In this document: piece after piece, positions 1 through 29,947 of the stretch | Numbering within the stretch: position 1 is the stretch's first letter | How the letters are laid out: the number at the start of each line of letters is the position of its first letter | Origin: Candidatus Methanoperedens sp. | GTDB taxonomy: Archaea; Halobacteriota; Methanosarcinia; Methanosarcinales; Methanoperedenaceae | Length of the DNA: 32,000 bases | Direction: 5' to 3' | NCBI GenBank assembly: GCA_027460535.1 | Contig: JAPZAR010000007.1 | Coordinates: forward strand, 60,001 to 92,000 | Notes under the pieces: model-generated | The model's database searches: none | What the model was told of the DNA's origin: nothing | Seen by the model: only the letters and a program-made list of their open reading frames with translations | Made by a program: the position numbers and the translations under genes

Positions 1-201
1 GCGTATTCACTCGTAATAGGCTCAAATCTAGGCGCCAATTTTACAACCTTCGGGGCGCTTGCCGGGATACTCTGGCTTGAGAGCGCGCGTCGCTATGGCT
101 GGAGCACGAAAATGACTGATCTATTAAAGATAGGCCTTTTCGTGACCCCAATAGCGATACTTGGATCGAGCATAGTGCTGGCGATTGAATTAATGCTTTG
201 A
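1..201 (+). CDS. ArsB/NhaD-superfamily permease, C-terminal fragment (gene begins upstream of window)
   Basis: Frame 1 is open from base 1 to TGA at 199-201. The translation AYSLVIGSNLGANFTTFGALAGILWLESARRYGW...IVLAIELML is hydrophobic. It resembles the conserved C-terminal 'GSNLGAN.T..G.LA..LW' region of arsenical-pump/citrate-transporter-like permeases. It is absent from the ORF track because it has no in-window start. Confidence 0.55.
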   Translation, partial: AYSLVIGSNLGANFTTFGALAGILWLESARRYGWSTKMTDLLKIGLFVTPIAILGSSIVLAIELML

Positions 202-384
202 CCATAAACGATATATCGATTAATAAATAATCTAAGTCCAATTGTCAATAATTTGTGCGGCTGAACGGCCAGAGTCGCGCCTCGAAACCCTGCGGGTTCT
301 CGACTCCGCACACACGTATGGCTGCGCCATACGTGGATATATCTCCGGCTCGATTGGACAATGAACATTGAAAAAATACGATAT

Positions 385-498
385 GCGGCTGTGGTCCAGC
401 GGCTATGACAGGGGCTTCCCAACAGCCTTTTGCAGGCAAAAGCTTGATCAAAAGGAGGGAAATAGCCTCTAACCCGGGTTCGAATCCCGGCAGCCGCA
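385..498 (+). tRNA. tRNA-Gly (anticodon CCC) with an intron of about 42 nt at canonical position 37/38
   Basis: Manual cloverleaf. Perfect 7-bp acceptor GCGGCTG (385-391)/CAGCCGC (491-497) with discriminator A498. D arm 394-409 with a GG-containing loop. Anticodon stem GGGGC (411-415)/GCCTC (465-469). Loop TTCCCA..A gives anticodon CCC (418-420). T arm CCGGG-TTCGAAT-CCCGG (474-490). The insert at about 422-463 interrupts the anticodon loop. T417-C420 pair with G457-A460, next to the 3-nt bulge AAT (461-463), and C426-T431 pair with A450-G455. This is bulge-helix-bulge-like. CCA is not encoded. Confidence 0.85.
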
Positions 499-554
499 CT
501 TAATATTCGGGGATACATACACAACATACGTAATGTCACCTCAAAATGTCACCT

Positions 555-576
555 ATTCCGTAACGGGAATTTTTTA
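555..576 (+). terminator. Candidate tRNA transcript terminator (short hairpin plus oligo-T)
   Basis: ATTCC (555-559) pairs with GGAAT (566-570) across a 6-nt loop, followed by a run of six T (570-575). Archaeal RNA polymerase terminates at oligo-T tracts. The site lies 57 nt downstream of the tRNA 3' end. Confidence 0.35.
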
Positions 577-596
577 AGATAACCTTTGTGTTATAA

Positions 597-1030
597 AACC
601 CAAATTTGACAGTTCTAATTATTACTGAATGATTTTACAATTTTTATTATCAACGATAAAACGTGGTTTTGAATTTTTCACCATTTTTTCAAGCATAAAT
701 TTGACAGTTCTATTTCTGTTTGTTGAATGCGATTTCTTTGATTTTTCACTTGTTTTTAGATCAACAATTTGACAGTTCCTTTATCTTTGATAGAATTTGG
801 TTTTGATGATTTTTGACTTTTTTTATTGACCTGTTATTTGACAGGTGAGACAAGTATATCTAAACAGAAAATTACCAAAAAATACAACATGGAATTTGAC
901 AGTTGCTGTAGATTTTCGAAAAAAATAAACAAGAATGGTATATTTTTGTTATTTTCACTCAAATAATAAGGAAAATTTGTTGTTAAAAGAGAATATTCTC
1001 TTTTAAGAAGACTGCCATCTGTCAAACTTA
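597..1030 (+). repeat. Iteron-like array of degenerate 57-94-bp units sharing the core (A)ATTTGACAG(TTC)
   Basis: Direct copies at 603-615, 697-710, 766-778, 836-847 and 893-905. One inverted copy, CTGTCAAAC, at 1019-1027. A second shared submotif, GGTTTTGA(n)TTTTTCAC, occurs at about 665-682, 735-750 and 799-818. The region is very AT-rich and ORF-free apart from one implausible antisense ORF. Confidence 0.8.
983..1006. repeat. Perfect 24-bp palindrome TTAAAAGAGAAT|ATTCTCTTTTAA
   Basis: Read directly: the 12-nt half-sites are exact reverse complements. It lies between the last direct iteron and the inverted iteron, about 200 bp upstream of the 1209 start codon. Confidence 0.9.
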
Positions 1031-1208
1031 GGATAAAAGCATCATATATGGTGGATACTCTCGGCAAGCTCCTGTCTTGGCTCATATACAATAATTGGTA
1101 GATGGATTTTTTTATGAGAGTAGTATAAAATCCAAAAAATTACTTGATTATCAGAAATTATTAGATATAAAAACATTTATGCATTGTTAAATTAACGGAA
1201 TAGTAAAC

Positions 1209-2375
1209 ATGCCAAGGAAATTATCTGACTTTCGTTTAGCATCGCAAGAAGAAATAGAAAGTGTGGGTTATGGTGGCGCAGGAATATTTACAGGGGCCCC
1301 TGGTGGATTCCACAGAACAATTATTTATAAATTAATGAACGAAACTTTTGGTCCGCCAAATACTTATGCAGGAGACAAATCTACTTGGGAATGGATTATT
1401 TATACTAACGCTGGTCTTTTGACAATATATGATTATAAGGGAGATTGGTCAATCGGATATGCTAGTACAAATCTAAAGCTATCTATTGAATTATTAAATG
1501 AAGCATCTGCATTACAGGATGCTCTGCTAATAGAGGCAGATAAAATTCATTTTTCAAAAATGCAAATTCAGAAACTAAAGGTTGGAGGAGCTATCTTAAA
1601 TCCTTATTCTTTGTATCGTAATACAACAGAGGATTTGATAAGACAGACTAGCGAGATAATTAAAGAGATAGAGAGTTTACAAAAAGAAAGAGATATTAAT
1701 AAAACTCTTGACTCTTTTGCTAAATCTCAATTTGTGTCATCCTTAAATAGGTCAGCATTTATGACTACATTTTTGAGTTTAGAAGGCTTTATAAACCTTG
1801 TATATACACTGTTCCTAAAAAATAGATATCGGAATGATATATACGACAAACGGCTTAGAAATGAAATGCTTCCGATAAAAATTTTAGAAATGGATGTATA
1901 TTGCCATTCATTCAAAAGCTCTCCACTAGAAAAAAATGGTGAATTATTTGGTGCGATTCAACATTTTATAAATACAAGAAATCTAATATTACATGCAAAT
2001 ATATCTGATGCAATGGAAGAGCATATTATTAAACAGGATACAAATTTACTTGTCTTGAAGCGCAAAGAGGAAAAAGAGAAATATGGAATAGCATCAGACA
2101 TAATGAATCTCAATAACGTCAATGTTATTAGAGCAAATAAGTTAGTTCAAAAGTTTGTAGCGAAAGTACTTCAATCTCTTGCTGAAGATGTAAAAATTCC
2201 TTTTACTATGGTTCATTCCAATCTTTGGGTGGAATATCGCCATGAAGAACCAGACTCAATTTTTTTCCCTTTAAGTGAAGATGACTATGTCCCGTTAAAA
2301 GAAATCAGGTCAATTTTGAAGGAGTCCACAGAACTGGACGAAGATTATTATAATATTAGTGAGAAAAAATTTTAA
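1209..2375 (+). CDS. Orphan 388-aa protein with an unknown N-terminal domain and a C-terminal HEPN-like domain (putative RNase/abortive-infection-type effector)
   Basis: Long ORF in an AT-rich island with a TATA-like ATATAAAAA about 40 bp upstream. 'INTRNLILHAN' contains R257-x4-H262 (nt 1977-1994), the Rx4-6H signature of HEPN nucleases, in the common R-N-x-x-x-H form. It is preceded by the predicted helix 'AFMTTFLSLEGFINLVY' with a conserved acidic residue. I do not recognise residues 1-95 (GYGGAGIFTGAPGG...WEWIIYTNAGLLTIYDYKGDWSIGY). Confidence 0.45.
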   Translation: MPRKLSDFRLASQEEIESVGYGGAGIFTGAPGGFHRTIIYKLMNETFGPPNTYAGDKSTWEWIIYTNAGLLTIYDYKGDWSIGYASTNLKLSIELLNEASALQDALLIEADKIHFSKMQIQKLKVGGAILNPYSLYRNTTEDLIRQTSEIIKEIESLQKERDINKTLDSFAKSQFVSSLNRSAFMTTFLSLEGFINLVYTLFLKNRYRNDIYDKRLRNEMLPIKILEMDVYCHSFKSSPLEKNGELFGAIQHFINTRNLILHANISDAMEEHIIKQDTNLLVLKRKEEKEKYGIASDIMNLNNVNVIRANKLVQKFVAKVLQSLAEDVKIPFTMVHSNLWVEYRHEEPDSIFFPLSEDDYVPLKEIRSILKESTELDEDYYNISEKKF

Positions 2376-2506
2376 ACCTATGTTTGATAATATATTATAA
2401 TTATTCAAATATAATTATTATTTATAAACTATCCTTTCATTTAGTTTATACACACCCATAACCCCGTATTTTGAAATGCGTAAAACAAAAAATTATACGC
2501 AATTAA

Positions 2507-3136
2507 TCAATCATATGGAAAAAGCGTTCGTTCCCTTTTCAATTTTATTCCATGAATGAGAGCGACTTCATTTTTTTGTTCCTCTATACTTATGTAGTGT
2601 CCGTGTTTTAACATGTAATACCCAAAGATTGGCAAAATAATTGCTAATAAAATATAGTACACTGAGGGACTTATTTTTTCGGTAAGAAAACGAACAATAG
2701 CAACTATTGACATCACAAATCCTCCAAGTAAAGACGCAGACCCTATAGACATTTCTAATACAGAAAAGTAAGTCAATCTTTCAAGTGAATTTAATACTTT
2801 CTCATCGTAATTATCTATCAAATCTTGTAAGATAGTATATTGACTTTTATAATCATAGGGGGATTTATAGAGGGTATTTATAGAATCCTTCTCAATGGGA
2901 CAGATTACCTCAGTCGCAATGCGATGTAGTGCTACCCCAGCTATATAAAAAATCGCCAAGAAACCAATTAATTTTGAAGATAGTTGCGGAAGATCAATCT
3001 CTCCCCATAATGTATAGTTAAAAATACTGATAAATAGTCCACCAGCAATGAGATAAACAAGATCACGACCAAAGAAATGCGAGTAAAACCCTTCCATCAT
3101 TGAACCTTGGACGTCATTCATTGTTTCACCGTTCAA
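2507..3136 (-). CDS. Orphan integral membrane protein (about 4 TM segments, 209 aa)
   Basis: ORF with four hydrophobic stretches (LVYLIAGGLFISIF, LIGFLAIFYIAGVAL, IGSASLLGGFVMSIVAIV, VYYILLAIILPIFGYYML) and a soluble loop of about 50 aa. Convergent with the 1209-2375 gene. No recognisable family motif. Confidence 0.55.
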   Translation of the reverse strand: MNGETMNDVQGSMMEGFYSHFFGRDLVYLIAGGLFISIFNYTLWGEIDLPQLSSKLIGFLAIFYIAGVALHRIATEVICPIEKDSINTLYKSPYDYKSQYTILQDLIDNYDEKVLNSLERLTYFSVLEMSIGSASLLGGFVMSIVAIVRFLTEKISPSVYYILLAIILPIFGYYMLKHGHYISIEEQKNEVALIHGIKLKRERTLFPYD

Positions 3137-3669
3137 ATAACATAACTCTTATTTATTTCACAAACTTAAATATTATGTGTCTGGCTTTAACAGTCAGTAA
3201 GGGTTTAGCTTAAAAACTACCTGTCTATTACGAGAGGTTTAATCTATATTCAAACTTAATTGCAATCTACAGGAAAGGGACATAATTACGGCAAGCCCAG
3301 CAAAATGTGCAGAAGTCTTGATCATATTTGGCAATTTGCGACTTGAGTCTATTTTGATCAACCCATTAAAAAGTTATAGTAAGTAAAATAAAATTATATT
3401 GAAAAAATATTTTACTAAGTTGTAAATACCCATTTGGGAATCGATTAGAAAGCTGAGAGGCAAACCGATTGCAACAAATCGAAAATGGCATGCGATTATA
3501 AGAAAAGTGATACTTACTTCCCGAAGGTAAACAATCCATATCATCAATGAAAAATCTCCTTGGCAATCTTTTTCTCAACATTAATCATGCTGTTGTGCAA
3601 AACTATTGTTAATTCTAAGGTCGCAGATTACGTCCCTTGAAAAGCGGCGGTCTATAGGAGGACTAGGTT

Positions 3670-3993
3670 ATGAATTTGCTGAAATTGAGGTATGATGAAG
3701 CTCTATGCATAGTTACTGGCTTTCAAGTGCTTGATGTTGGATTTACTTATTATGCCCTTGAAATCTTAAAACTTCACGAAGCAAACAGATTAATGTATTA
3801 TTTATTTGATAATTTCGGATTTATGATAGCTTTGTTTTTCAAGATACTGTATATGTCAGCGATCATCTATTTCTGTCACAGATATTTTAGACTTGGAGAA
3901 AAATTTGGATATTTCGCTTTGATTATATTCTATAATTTAGTATTGTTTAATAATGTTCTTTCAATTTTTTCAAAATTGGCGGTGGTGAATTAA
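3670..3993 (+). CDS. Small membrane protein, DUF5658-like (107 aa)
   Basis: Strong Shine-Dalgarno-like GGAGG 8 nt upstream of the ATG. It has 3-4 hydrophobic helices. 'DVGFTYYAL...HEANRLM' resembles the D..T...L....E.NP pattern of the small archaeal/bacterial DUF5658 family. Confidence 0.5.
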   Translation: MNLLKLRYDEALCIVTGFQVLDVGFTYYALEILKLHEANRLMYYLFDNFGFMIALFFKILYMSAIIYFCHRYFRLGEKFGYFALIIFYNLVLFNNVLSIFSKLAVVN

Positions 3994-4275
3994 ATCCAAT
4001 GACATATCTTCAGAATGGCTTCCATTGCGATGGTGGGGGTATAATAATACGTACATAGGGTACCAGGTATGTGAAGATTGTGTACAGTATCATAGGGAAA
4101 AACCATCGCTCTTAAATGGTGAAATTAGCTTTTTGTCAAATGAATGGTCCTGGAGGGGAGAAGATTTTTTTAATACCGCCATATCCTGCCCACATTTTTT
4201 TAAGGTCTCGGAAAACCGAAGTTAGAAAATTATCCTGAAATAATTATTTATATTAGAAAAACGTGTGAAGATTCT

Positions 4276-26814: not shown

Positions 26815-27122
26815 GCGAGAGAGGAAGGGCGGCTACCGGCGGCAACGCTGAGGAAAGTCCCCTCACCATCTGGACCGCGGACACATGCAAGTGTGTAGGG
26901 TGAGAATCCTGGCTCTGGAACAGAAACGATACCGCTGCGCAGAAATGCGATGAGCTCGAAAGAGCGAGGTCATGCGTATTGCGGATGGAACGGCGAATCC
27001 CCGCGGGTGCAAGCCGAAATAGGACAGAAAGGGCAGTCCAGACCTGTCCGAGTACGGCGCATAGCTGAATGCTGCACGGCATTGCCCCTTGCGCTGAACA
27101 TAAAGGGGCTTACTCTCCTCAC
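26815..27122 (+). ncRNA. rnpB: RNase P RNA, archaeal type
   Basis: The universally conserved CR-I 'GAGGAAAGTCC' is at 26850-26860. CR-V-like 'ACATAAAGGGGCTTAC' is at 27098-27113, and its GGGGCTT pairs with AAGTCCCC to form P4. 'TAGGGTGAGAA' and 'ACAGAAA' are conserved-region-like elements. GAGAG at the 5' end can pair with CTCTC at the 3' end (P1). The ends are approximate to about 5 nt. Confidence 0.88.
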
Positions 27123-29947
27123 TCAAACTTATTCTGGGAACAGAAGATTTTTGCTCTTTCGAGATTTCTTGAAATTACCCGATAAGCCTCAGGAAATTCC
27201 TCTTTTGAATATATTTTCAGCGCCTCTTCATAAGCGTCGATTGATTTCTTGCAGTTCTCAGCTTTGTTCTCTACCTCGGCAAGAGTTCCATAGGCAGTAC
27301 CGAGATTGTTCTGCGTCATTGCATAGTCCATTGGGAAACGGTCAGGTGTTCTGACTTTGAGCGCCTCTTCATAAGCGTCGATTGATTTCTTGCAGTTCTC
27401 AACTTCGTTCTCTACCTCGGCAAGAGTTCCATAGGCAGTACCGAGATTATTCTGCGTCATTGCATAGTCCATTGGGAAACGGTCAAGTGTTCTGACTTTG
27501 AGCGCCTCTTCATAAGCAGCAATTGATTTCTTGCAGTTCTCAGCTTTGTTTTCAACCTCGGCAAGAGTTTGATAGGCAGCACCGAGATTGTTCTGGGTCA
27601 TCGCATACTGCATAGGGAAGCGGTCTGATGTATAGACTTTCAGCGCCTCTTCACAAGCAGCGATTGACTTCTTGCAGCTCTCGGCTTTGTTCTCAACCTC
27701 TGCAAATATTCGATAGGCAGTGCCGAGATTGTATTGAATCATGGAATACTGCATGGGGAAGCGGTCTAGTGTGTAGTCCTTCAGCGCCTCCTCATAAGCT
27801 GCAATTGATTTCTTGCAGTTCTCAGCCGTGTTCTCTACTTCAGCGAGTATTCGATAAGCATTGCCGAGATTGTTCTGGATAGCAGCATACTGCATGGGGA
27901 AGCGGTCTAGATTATAGACCTTCAAGGCTTCCTGACAAGCTGCAATTGCTTTCTTGCAGTTCTCAGCCGTTTTCTCTACTTCAGCAAGCGTTCGATAGGC
28001 ATTGCCGAGATTGTTCTGGGTCATTGCATAACCCATAGGGGAGAGGTCTAGTGTTGTAACTTTAAGAGCCTCTTCATAAGCTGCAATTGCCTTCTTGCAG
28101 TTTTCAGCTTTGTTCTCAACCTCTGCAAGTAGTTGATAAGCATTGCCGAGATTGTTCTGGGTAGTAGCGTACTGCATAGGGAAGCGGTCAAGTGTATAGA
28201 CTTTCAGCGCCTCTTCACAAGCAGCGATTGATTTCTTGCAGTTCTCAGCTTTGTTCTCAACCTCTGCAAATATTCGATAGGCATTGCCGAGATTGTTCTG
28301 GGTCATCACAAAATCCATAGGGTAATCCTTAAAAGTATAGACTTTCAGCGCTTCTTCAAACGCTGTTATTGCTTTCTTGCAGTTCTCAGCTTTGTTCTCA
28401 ACCTCTGCAAGAGTTTGAAAGGCATTGCCGAGATTGTTCTGGATACTAGCATAGTCCATAGAGAAGCGGTCTGGTGTATAGATTTTCAGCGTATCCTCAA
28501 AAATTACTATTGATTTCTTGCAGTTCTCAGCTTTATTCTCTACCTCGGCAAGAGTTCCATAGGCAGTACCGAGATTGTTCTGGGTAGTAGCATACTGCAT
28601 GGGGAAGCGGTCAAACGTTCTGACTTTAAGCGACTCTTCGAAAGCTGCTATTGATTTCTTGCAGTTCTCAGCTTTGTTCTCAACTTCAGCAAGTGTTCCA
28701 CAGGTAATGCCTAGATTGTTCTGGGTGGTAGCATACTGTATGGGGAAGAGGTCAAGTGTATAGACTTTGAGCGCTTCTTCATAAGCAGCTATTGACACCT
28801 TCATATAATATTTTTTATTAATGTCTACTATTCCAATACCATAAGCTCTATTTCCAAGACTGAACAAAGCCTCTGCATCACCCGAAAAGAAGCCAGCGAT
28901 TTTCGTGAAAAAGCTGATTCTGTCTGCTTCAATTCCATCAGGCTCTATTACAGAGTCAAGATATGCTTCTTCTGCCCAGATGACTTCATCGTTTATAATT
29001 TTTATAAAATTCTTTTTTTCAATATTCGAAAATAGAACATCTATTCGGTATTTCTCCAAGTTTATACCGAACAAAACCTTGCCAAGATGAAGAATTCGTT
29101 TTATAGAAAATTTCTCTTTTTCTTGATAAATCCCTGCTTTGTAAAGTGACCTTATGCTCTTTAGAACTGCTTTCTCTTCTGGACTGCTTTCTCCGAACCT
29201 TGCTATCATTATATCGAGAGGCATTACAAGCGAACCTATTTTACCATCAAATTCTAATGGTTTCCACTCGACCCCTATTTTCGCTGCAATTTCTTTTCCT
29301 TTTTCATCTGGAATTTCTTCCGGAAAGCTTATACTGTTCTCTTTCTTAAATAAAGAGTTGAGCCACTCCATCTTTTGCAATTTTTCAAACTCAATACCTG
29401 AACGGCATGAAGCGATTATAACAGCTTTATTTTTAAGAAACTCTTCAACCAGATACCTAAAATTTTGTTTTTCAATGAATTTATCAATATCATCCAGAAC
29501 AACTATGGTTTTTCTCCAGAAAGTAAGTTTGAGTGGTACTTCAAATTTTTCTAAATCAATATCCTGAATTCTTGGAATTATAACATTGGAAACAGGATTC
29601 ATGGTCTTAAGGGCTTCATAAATCGCTCTCGTTTTTCCAGAAAGCGGCGCACCGACAACCAAAACATGATCTCCGTTATCAATTACTTTTTTGAGCGACC
29701 GGTATTCATCTAATTCATAATATGCAAGCATGGGTCGCCTGAAAAGATCTTCTGGTTTAATGGAACTGGATTTTTTCCCATGAACTACATAGATATTATT
29801 CAAACGTTTGTATTCATTGATAGTAAAACTTACAAGATATGCATAGGCAGAAATTACAGCAATTAGAATCGCTACAGAAGCTTCCACATGGTTGCGAGAA
29901 AATTCTAAGATTGAATAGATAATATTACTTACCACATTTCGCTCCAT
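27119..29947 (-). CDS. Membrane-anchored P-loop NTPase (AAA+/STAND-like) with eleven 47-aa TPR-like repeats
   Basis: N-terminal TM 'ASVAILIAVISAYAYLVSFTI'. Walker A 'GAPLSGKT' (aa 99-106, nt about 29630-29653). Walker B 'IVVLDDID' (aa 148-155). A helical middle region of about 200 aa follows. Then 11 tandem units of consensus 'FPMQYAMTQNNLGNAY..LAEVENKAENCKKSIAAYEEALKVYTLDR', where NLGNAY/..Y.EAL are TPR signature positions. Confidence 0.8.
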   Translation of the reverse strand: MERNVVSNIIYSILEFSRNHVEASVAILIAVISAYAYLVSFTINEYKRLNNIYVVHGKKSSSIKPEDLFRRPMLAYYELDEYRSLKKVIDNGDHVLVVGAPLSGKTRAIYEALKTMNPVSNVIIPRIQDIDLEKFEVPLKLTFWRKTIVVLDDIDKFIEKQNFRYLVEEFLKNKAVIIASCRSGIEFEKLQKMEWLNSLFKKENSISFPEEIPDEKGKEIAAKIGVEWKPLEFDGKIGSLVMPLDIMIARFGESSPEEKAVLKSIRSLYKAGIYQEKEKFSIKRILHLGKVLFGINLEKYRIDVLFSNIEKKNFIKIINDEVIWAEEAYLDSVIEPDGIEADRISFFTKIAGFFSGDAEALFSLGNRAYGIGIVDINKKYYMKVSIAAYEEALKVYTLDLFPIQYATTQNNLGITCGTLAEVENKAENCKKSIAAFEESLKVRTFDRFPMQYATTQNNLGTAYGTLAEVENKAENCKKSIVIFEDTLKIYTPDRFSMDYASIQNNLGNAFQTLAEVENKAENCKKAITAFEEALKVYTFKDYPMDFVMTQNNLGNAYRIFAEVENKAENCKKSIAACEEALKVYTLDRFPMQYATTQNNLGNAYQLLAEVENKAENCKKAIAAYEEALKVTTLDLSPMGYAMTQNNLGNAYRTLAEVEKTAENCKKAIAACQEALKVYNLDRFPMQYAAIQNNLGNAYRILAEVENTAENCKKSIAAYEEALKDYTLDRFPMQYSMIQYNLGTAYRIFAEVENKAESCKKSIAACEEALKVYTSDRFPMQYAMTQNNLGAAYQTLAEVENKAENCKKSIAAYEEALKVRTLDRFPMDYAMTQNNLGTAYGTLAEVENEVENCKKSIDAYEEALKVRTPDRFPMDYAMTQNNLGTAYGTLAEVENKAENCKKSIDAYEEALKIYSKEEFPEAYRVISRNLERAKIFCSQNKFE
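27180..28800 (-). repeat. 141-bp tandem coding repeats (about 11.5 copies) inside the NTPase-TPR gene
   Basis: The marker GCGCCTCTTC recurs at 27220, 27361 and 27502 (period 141). Units 27220-27360 and 27361-27501 differ at 4 of 141 positions by manual alignment. More N-terminal units are more diverged. Confidence 0.9.

Follow-up and report, generated by a model that had tools for sequence, protein, structure and literature searches.

A stretch of 32,000 nucleotides from Candidatus Methanoperedens sp. (GenBank assembly GCA_027460535.1, contig JAPZAR010000007.1, positions 60,001 to 92,000; the whole stretch is called the window below) carries on its forward strand a gene that raises the question of whether a single protein could combine a HEPN ribonuclease (RNase) with a domain that controls it, and whether such a protein would act in defence. 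The gene, at 1209–2375, is a complete open reading frame (ORF) that begins with ATG and encodes 388 amino acids followed by a stop codon; the start codon is supported because homologues open with the same MPRKLSDFRLAS. A preliminary description of this DNA had proposed an unknown N-terminal domain fused to a HEPN-like module with an R-N-x-x-x-H motif, and the ORF, the peptides quoted from it and the motif are all located as claimed (Table 1). The analysis below places the protein in a family with an invariant Arg-His pair and a predicted layout that agrees with a divergent HEPN-like domain, and then weighs what such a protein would do.

Conservation of the RNxxxH motif across a protein family

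The protein is not the orphan that it had been taken for. A large protein collection held 28 homologues at E≤1e-84, mostly full length and with 39–86% identity, and an exhaustive HMMER search with the homologue alignment detected at least 254 representative clusters at E≤1e-3, with 158 at E≤1e-10. Residue conservation was counted over an alignment of 94 diverse family members that reaches down to 14% identity to the window protein. Only two columns, R257 and H262, do not vary at all (94/94 each), such that the Arg-His pair on which the preliminary description had staked its interpretation is retained throughout. N258 is conserved in 91/94 sequences, N196 in 93/94, and N131, C232 and F235 in 92/94 each, while position 192 is glutamate in 93/94 and aspartate in 1/94; within the N-terminal domain, G48 and W60 are both conserved in 87/94. 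A trimmed helical-domain alignment left the same residues invariant.

R257, N258 and H262 make up the sole Rx4-6H of the 388-residue protein. When the protein's own composition was shuffled, an Rx4H arose in 29% of the shuffles and an RNx3H in 2.2%, and the motif taken alone is weak evidence; it is the conservation across the family that takes the motif beyond chance. One close homologue lacks the motif: in P0021 (loci L006–L008), a protein of 451 residues with a large insert, the R, N and H are replaced (IVELFKNTN), and it looks like an inactivated derivative.

Predicted layout of the helical domain

Within the HEPN superfamily the Rx4-6H motif lies where helix 3 ends, and carries a polar residue (N, D or H) directly after the arginine, an acidic residue is located in helix 2, and inserts occur between helices 2 and 3 (PMC3710099). 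An AlphaFold2 (AF2) model built with the family alignment (predicted local distance difference test score, pLDDT, 88; predicted template modelling score, pTM, 0.79), together with a separately predicted model of the HEPN-like part (pLDDT 84), allowed the window protein to be compared with this description, using DSSP to assign secondary structure on the AF2 model. The Rx4-6H with a polar residue after the arginine is present family-wide (R257-N258-x3-H262); the motif (257–262) sits at the end of a helix (245–261) that runs into a loop; and E192 lies within helix 163–202, as part of an Ex3N. The order of the helices and the position of the insert in the AF2 model agree with the four-helix HEPN layout. 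A conserved glutamate had been placed about 70 residues before the motif; the glutamate is there, and the exact distance from E192 to R257 is 65 residues.

To compare the relatives with known families, the 94 members were scanned singly against Pfam (2025 copy). HEPN_RiboL-PSP was matched by 27/94 members (best E 1.9e-5), and further matches fell on Swt1 (4), MAE_28990 (4), Apea (4), DUF3644 (3), HepT (2) and Cthe_2314 (1); DUF3644 overlaps the EC042_2821 HEPN family (PMC3710099). Among the eight Pfam families matched by two or more members, six are HEPN families, and in each protein the locally aligned part takes in its own RNxxxH.

Taken with the conserved residues and the predicted model, these matches suggest that residues ~131–338 form a divergent HEPN-like domain, and probably a true HEPN. 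The fold itself we infer, as none of the profile and structure searches reached significance for HEPN. The earlier claim of a HEPN-like module therefore holds for the invariant R/H pair, the polar asparagine, the glutamate in the preceding helix and the position of the motif at a helix end, but not for significant similarity to the HEPN fold. Judged from the sequence comparisons, the helical domain lies outside every existing Pfam family. It shares with the HEPN superfamily (PMC3710099) an all-alpha domain, R-N-x3-H at a helix end, a glutamate in the preceding helix and a variable insert, and it resembles that superfamily also in its mobile or defence-type neighbourhoods and in its fusion to a variable N-terminal domain. 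It differs in the very long helices 1 and 2, a beta-hairpin inserted between helices 3 and 4, Ex3N in place of Ex3[KR] and the additional, essentially invariant N131-P-Y and YC232xxF235, as well as in giving no match at the gathering score and no significant structural match.

A family-specific N-terminal domain

The preliminary description recognised no match for the first 95 residues or so, and this stands: the domain resembles nothing known. Its predicted core comprises a helix ending in FGxPN (which contains G48), a three-strand meander (W60xW/Y; YDWK/YDYKG; WSIG) and a further helix. The domain was found throughout the family, including in a subgroup of 400+ residues whose members carry an additional N-terminal extension. 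When a profile of the N-terminal domain was used on its own to search for other architectures, just two truncated family members were recovered, and as far as these searches reach the domain is specific to the family.

Foldseek comparison of the full model with the BFVD collection of predicted viral structures gave borderline matches (E 0.009–0.1, probability 0.95–0.99) to small uncharacterised phage proteins of 84–138 residues, a size that fits the N-terminal domain. Examples are A0A1J0GVZ8 of Streptomyces phage BRock (84 residues; root-mean-square deviation 2.9 over 73 columns, 25% identity) and gp308 of Bacillus phage G (138 residues). These matches are probably to the N-terminal domain, and we treat them as a lead, not as a result.

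Rarity and spread of the family

The family is rare, patchy and common to archaea and bacteria. A partial protein 100% identical to the product of the ORF is present in a Candidatus Methanoperedens metagenome-assembled genome (MAG), one named homologue comes from a Thermoplasmata MAG, and the carriers of close homologues include bacterial contigs, recognised by their SmpB, Rho and sigma-70 genes. A scan of 185,579 species, with one genome per species, detected only 9 loci, spread over 'Zipacnadia', Chloroflexi, Dehalococcoidia, Bacteroidaceae, a cyanobacterium, unclassified bacteria and a Methylarchaceae archaeon. Most genome matches to the family are bacterial; the proposal of an undescribed archaeal variant was thus right in that the family is undescribed and wrong in that it is not specific to archaea. 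Such a rare and patchy distribution across two domains of life points to horizontal transfer, and the gene would have moved between archaea and bacteria.

Pfam, NCBIfam and PADLOC lack a model for the family, and no relative with a solved structure was found. A profile search that started from the distant 400+-residue subgroup, as a possible bridge to annotated HEPN proteins, returned family members only.

Gene neighbourhoods of the homologues

All-against-all BLASTP of the flanking ORFs (≥60 amino acids) found no neighbour shared across 19 loci; the gene thus works by itself, unless it has a partner whose small size or variability hides it from detection. Recognisable conflict genes are present in about half of ten distinct neighbourhoods of close homologues. 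One contains ThsB_TIR and GmrSD_N/HNH; one Abi_C and IS21; one HNH_2, a MazG-like protein and an SLFN-type helicase; and one RE_BsaWI, an N6/N4 methylase and HNH. In a further neighbourhood, that of the motif-less P0021, the gene stands immediately upstream of one for an ATPase of the AAA_15/AAA_23 (SMC_N-like) kind, past which lie VWA, AAA_5 and PDDEXK genes; P0021 may be an inactivated copy that was recruited into a multi-gene system. The remaining neighbourhoods of close homologues are housekeeping or of no recognised kind. Near the distant relatives a few genes stand out, namely DUF433 (three proteins), XisH, DpnII/MboI, IetA and PDC-S03. The survey of neighbourhoods that had been suggested for detecting defence islands thus gave a divided answer: conflict genes accompany about half of the close homologues, whereas several loci, mainly of distant relatives, are housekeeping. 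At three contigs (L009–L011) an Ion_trans-type channel gene is followed, 58 nt downstream and in the same orientation, by the gene for the homologue P0020, a pairing that was not seen at the other loci.

The low-GC island behind a tRNA-Gly gene

The ORF lies 710 nt downstream of an intron-bearing tRNA-Gly gene, in agreement with the tRNA adjacency noted before; default ARAGORN missed this tRNA. The island context proposed for the gene is also borne out, the low-GC block being real: GC content is 31–32% over 1001–4000, compared with 36–52% across most of the remaining window. The 5′ exon of this tRNA recurs in nine metagenome contigs, of which L028, L029 and L036 match the upstream CitMHS/ArsB-type transporter gene as well. 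The genes after the tRNA change from one contig to another: L036 has malic enzyme, DUF166 and DFP; L028 has FBPase and FKBP; and L032 and L033 have three ORFs of 384 (with a methyltransferase-like ILDIGAGPAP motif), 316 and 208 amino acids, none of which is related to the HEPN-like family. Because gene content after the same tRNA changes in this way, the position is a variable spot, and the tRNA-Gly site has the appearance of a hot spot for integration or variation.

Copies of AATTTGACAGTT, spaced 68–127 nt apart, lie in the AT-rich stretch that separates the tRNA from the gene, with 0 exact copies expected by chance. The repeats could be sites of protein binding or what is left of a mobile element. 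Two contigs of other assemblies (L039 and L040) match the window at 99.9% identity over 11.4 kb and start exactly within a AATTTGACAGTT copy; comparison of their positions 1–165 with 894–970 of the window revealed an extra unit of ~88 nt that includes the motif in inverted orientation (AACTGTCAAAT). The repeat region therefore differs even where sequences are nearly identical, and it causes assemblies to break. A 22-nt inverted repeat (832–853 and 3121–3142, 86% complementary) encloses the gene together with the convergent 209-residue ORF, and one of its arms overlaps a variant of the TTTGACAG motif; the repeat may be due to chance.

Table 1. Features of the ORF at 1209–2375, of its predicted product and of the surrounding island, in window coordinates
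Feature	Residues	Nucleotides	Strand	Basis or remark
tRNA-Gly(CCC), 42-nt intron at canonical 37/38		385..498	+	Rfam 46.4 bits; ARAGORN with introns allowed
Low-GC block (~31–32%)		540..4000		This gene, 209-residue ORF and DUF5658 ORF; left edge marked by the tRNA
Repeat AATTTGACAGTT, four exact copies		603, 698, 766, 893 (603..904)	+	Variants at 835 (+) and 1017 (-)
N-terminal alpha/beta domain (predicted)	1–92	1209..1484	+	AF2, conservation, domain alignment
Peptide GYGGAGIFTGAPGG	20–33			
Peptide WEW...SIGY	60–84			
Linker, two helices and one strand, joining the N-terminal domain to the helical domain	93–130	1485..1598	+	AF2 model
HEPN-like helical domain (predicted)	131–338	1599..2222	+	AF2, conservation, sub-threshold HEPN Pfam matches in relatives anchored on the motif
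Helix 1, N131-P-Y at its start	132–159			28 residues
Helix 2, long	163–202			40 residues; holds E192 and N196
Peptide FLSLEGFINLVY	188–199			
E192-G-F-I-N196, in helix 2	192–196	1782..1796	+	Conserved acidic residue and N196
Small helical insert	~203–244			Conserved YCxxF (C232, F235)
Helix 3	245–261			Ends in R257...H262 motif, then loop (coil)
Peptide FINTRNLILHAN	253–264	1965–2000		
R257-N-L-I-L-H262, predicted catalytic Rx4H motif	257–262	1977..1994	+	Conservation and AF2 secondary structure
Beta-hairpin after the motif	271–284			
Helix 4	303–322			
Further helix	326–335			
C-terminal extension, acidic STELDEDYYN tail	339–388	2223..2372	+	Only in the close subfamily; missing in ~340-residue relatives
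Membrane-protein ORF, 209 amino acids, convergent		2507–3136	-	
DUF5658 ORF		3670–3993	+	

Elsewhere in the window, an archaeal RNase P RNA gene is present at 26817–27124 (Rfam RF00373, 209.7 bits) and identifies the window as archaeal chromosomal DNA; with the identical partial protein from the Candidatus Methanoperedens MAG it marks the source as an archaeon of the Methanoperedens type. Adjoining this gene is an ORF of 942 amino acids (27119–29947, - strand) that contains a tandem repeat of 141 nt (27215–28795; 11.2 copies, 81% matches), corresponding to about eleven protein repeats of 47 residues. An association of the ORF at 1209–2375 with CRISPR was considered and set aside, since the window holds no array, gives no Rfam CRISPR match and has no cas genes. 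Neither was the protein placed among CRISPR-associated HEPN proteins (Cas13, Csm6/Csx1), as just one Rx4H motif is present and Pfam returned neither a CARF nor a Cas match.

A candidate single-gene effector and the alternatives

With moderate confidence, we propose that the protein is a single-gene effector of biological conflict or abortive infection (Abi), in which a dimeric HEPN RNase would be held by the fused N-terminal domain and released by a trigger. R257, N258 and H262, with E192 and N196 contributed by the adjacent helix, would make up a metal-independent RNase site. Among HEPN enzymes that have been characterised, the site works as a dimer and leaves 2′,3′-cyclic phosphate ends. The N-terminal domain (residues 1–92 with the linker) would most likely hold the nuclease off until a trigger such as infection or a foreign element is encountered; the released RNase would then cut cellular or invader RNA, and growth would stop. 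The sensor role of the N-terminal domain and the function in defence were overstated in the preliminary description; both go back to the architecture of the protein and to mixed neighbourhoods.

Several results weigh against the proposal. The window protein had no usable match in Pfam, NCBIfam, PADLOC or PHROGs, and 0 families of the PADLOC-DB v2 defence models were hit at E≤10; a DUF5055 match (E 0.06), the sole one in the scans, was dismissed. The HEPN Pfam matches of the relatives all lie below the gathering score, the listed HEPN_RiboL-PSP scores being 14–19 bits (17.7, 17.6 and 18.7 among them) against a cut-off of 28.4 bits, and subfamily consensus sequences performed no better than single sequences. 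Searches of PDB sequences with the single protein, with two family profiles (A1 and A2) and with a HEPN-only profile (A6) retrieved nothing relevant. Foldseek against PDB gave no match at E<0.1 for either the full or the HEPN-only model: the full model attracted only generic helical and profilin/roadblock-like noise, and the HEPN toxins 7bxo_F (E 1.0, TMt 0.49), 7ae6_A and 7ae9_D appeared only among generic helical bundles. Neither of the checks proposed in the preliminary description, a Pfam/HMMER scan and a comparison of an AlphaFold model by Foldseek, thus produced a significant HEPN match. The acidic motif, moreover, is Ex3N instead of the usual Ex3[KR]. As to context, an integrase and an att-type direct repeat copying the 3′ end of the tRNA were both looked for in the island and are absent, there is no recognisable defence gene near the ORF in the window, surroundings are housekeeping at L001, L003 and most of the distant relatives in L019–L026, and no relatives of the family were found in IMG/VR viral contigs, INPHARED cultured phages or PLSDB plasmids.

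The failure of sequence, profile and structure searches to reach any HEPN significantly would be expected if the helical domain had another fold altogether, with the R-N-x3-H and the glutamate forming, by convergence, the site of an unrelated enzyme or of a nucleotide- or ligand-binding domain. The unusual lengths of helices 1 and 2 (28 and 40 residues), the hairpin after the motif and the generic bundles that head the Foldseek matches are in keeping with this. Yet the invariant R/H pair, the polar asparagine, the motif at a helix end, the glutamate in the preceding helix and the insert reproduce the definition of HEPN point for point, and the weak Pfam matches gather on seven HEPN families and do not scatter; a non-HEPN protein is in our estimate unlikely. 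If the domain is a HEPN, it might still be restrained from outside. Many HEPN RNases are held by a separate antitoxin (PMC3710099), and the protein could be the toxin of a two-gene module like HepT/MntA or RnlA/RnlB, in which the antitoxin would be an RNA or a small or fast-evolving neighbour that had been missed; an ORF of 61 amino acids after P0021, one of 42 amino acids overlapping the stop codon of P0006, and the three DUF433 proteins and the XisH protein near distant relatives are conceivable partners. Against a second gene stand the lack of any neighbour of ≥60 amino acids common to the loci and of any MNT nucleotidyltransferase family in the neighbourhood tables, the 710 nt of non-coding repeats upstream of the window gene, the downstream membrane-protein ORF, which has no counterpart elsewhere, and the constant fused N-terminal domain, which is on offer as a built-in regulator. 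We judge a two-gene toxin-antitoxin module to be rather improbable.

A role in housekeeping RNA processing, for instance in the maturation of tRNA or rRNA, has precedents in Las1 and Ire1/KEN, which are HEPN proteins with core RNA-processing roles (PMC3710099), and the gene lies 710 nt downstream of a tRNA that itself bears an intron, with housekeeping neighbours at several relatives. Proximity to the tRNA would then be a matter of chance. An enzyme of this kind is hard to reconcile with 9 loci in 185,579 species genomes, with the absence of the gene from related Methanoperedens-like contigs that carry the same tRNA, with a GC content ~10–15 points under that of its surroundings and with the lack of a conserved operon partner. 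We reject a housekeeping role because the distribution is too patchy, and consider it highly improbable.

Relation to known systems and significance

PF18735 (HEPN_RiboL-PSP) belongs to the Abi2/Swt1 group, and its description gives it a distant relationship to AbiD/AbiF. The relatives match it more often than any other Pfam family, in alignments that span helices 1–2 and the RNxxxH region; it is set apart by the 28.4-bit cut-off, which the relatives do not reach, and by the lack of a match for the window protein. Neither its typical endoRNase L-PSP fusion nor its ParB operon was seen in the protein or the neighbourhood tables. The small HEPN RNase toxins of HepT/MntA (HEPN-MNT) type VII toxin-antitoxin systems (PDB 7bxo, 7ae6) are the only functionally related proteins in the Foldseek list, and two relatives have weak HepT-like Pfam matches at the motif. 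Unlike HepT, the window protein has no adjacent nucleotidyltransferase antitoxin, is three times larger with its fused N-terminal domain and lacks the Y of the RX4HXY form, and the structural similarity is at noise level (E 1–4). In overall architecture the protein follows the same logic as AbiJ, AbiU2 and ApeA, each a single polypeptide with a family-specific N-terminal domain and a C-terminal HEPN, often encoded beside restriction-modification genes (PMC3710099, Table 1), and four relatives have weak Apea-like HEPN matches. Here, the N-terminal alpha/beta domain of ~90 residues was unrelated in our searches to ApeA-NTD1 (~300 residues, mostly beta) or to the N-terminal domains of AbiJ, and there is no PADLOC match.

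We put forward, tentatively, the possibility that the family constitutes an unrecognised single-gene Abi system of archaea (among them methane-oxidising Methanoperedens and Thermoplasmata) and several bacterial phyla, in which infection would be sensed directly by a new alpha/beta domain of ~90 residues, perhaps akin to small phage proteins, and a HEPN RNase of unusual structure, with long helices and a beta-hairpin insert, would be released. In Cas13, Csm6, many Abi systems and many toxin-antitoxin pairs, the cutting is done by HEPN RNases. The gain is incremental and not conceptual, for a variable N-terminal domain joined to HEPN in mobile islands is a well-known pattern. Annotation and defence-finding pipelines miss the family because Pfam, NCBIfam and PADLOC have no model for it, and the alignments A1, A2 and A6 are sufficient to build one. 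The protein would be a compact RNase, and a new HEPN branch with its own sensor-like domain would extend the list of single-gene immune effectors; the lineages that it comes from, uncultured archaea like Methanoperedens and bacterial candidate phyla, are ones in which defence has received very little study.

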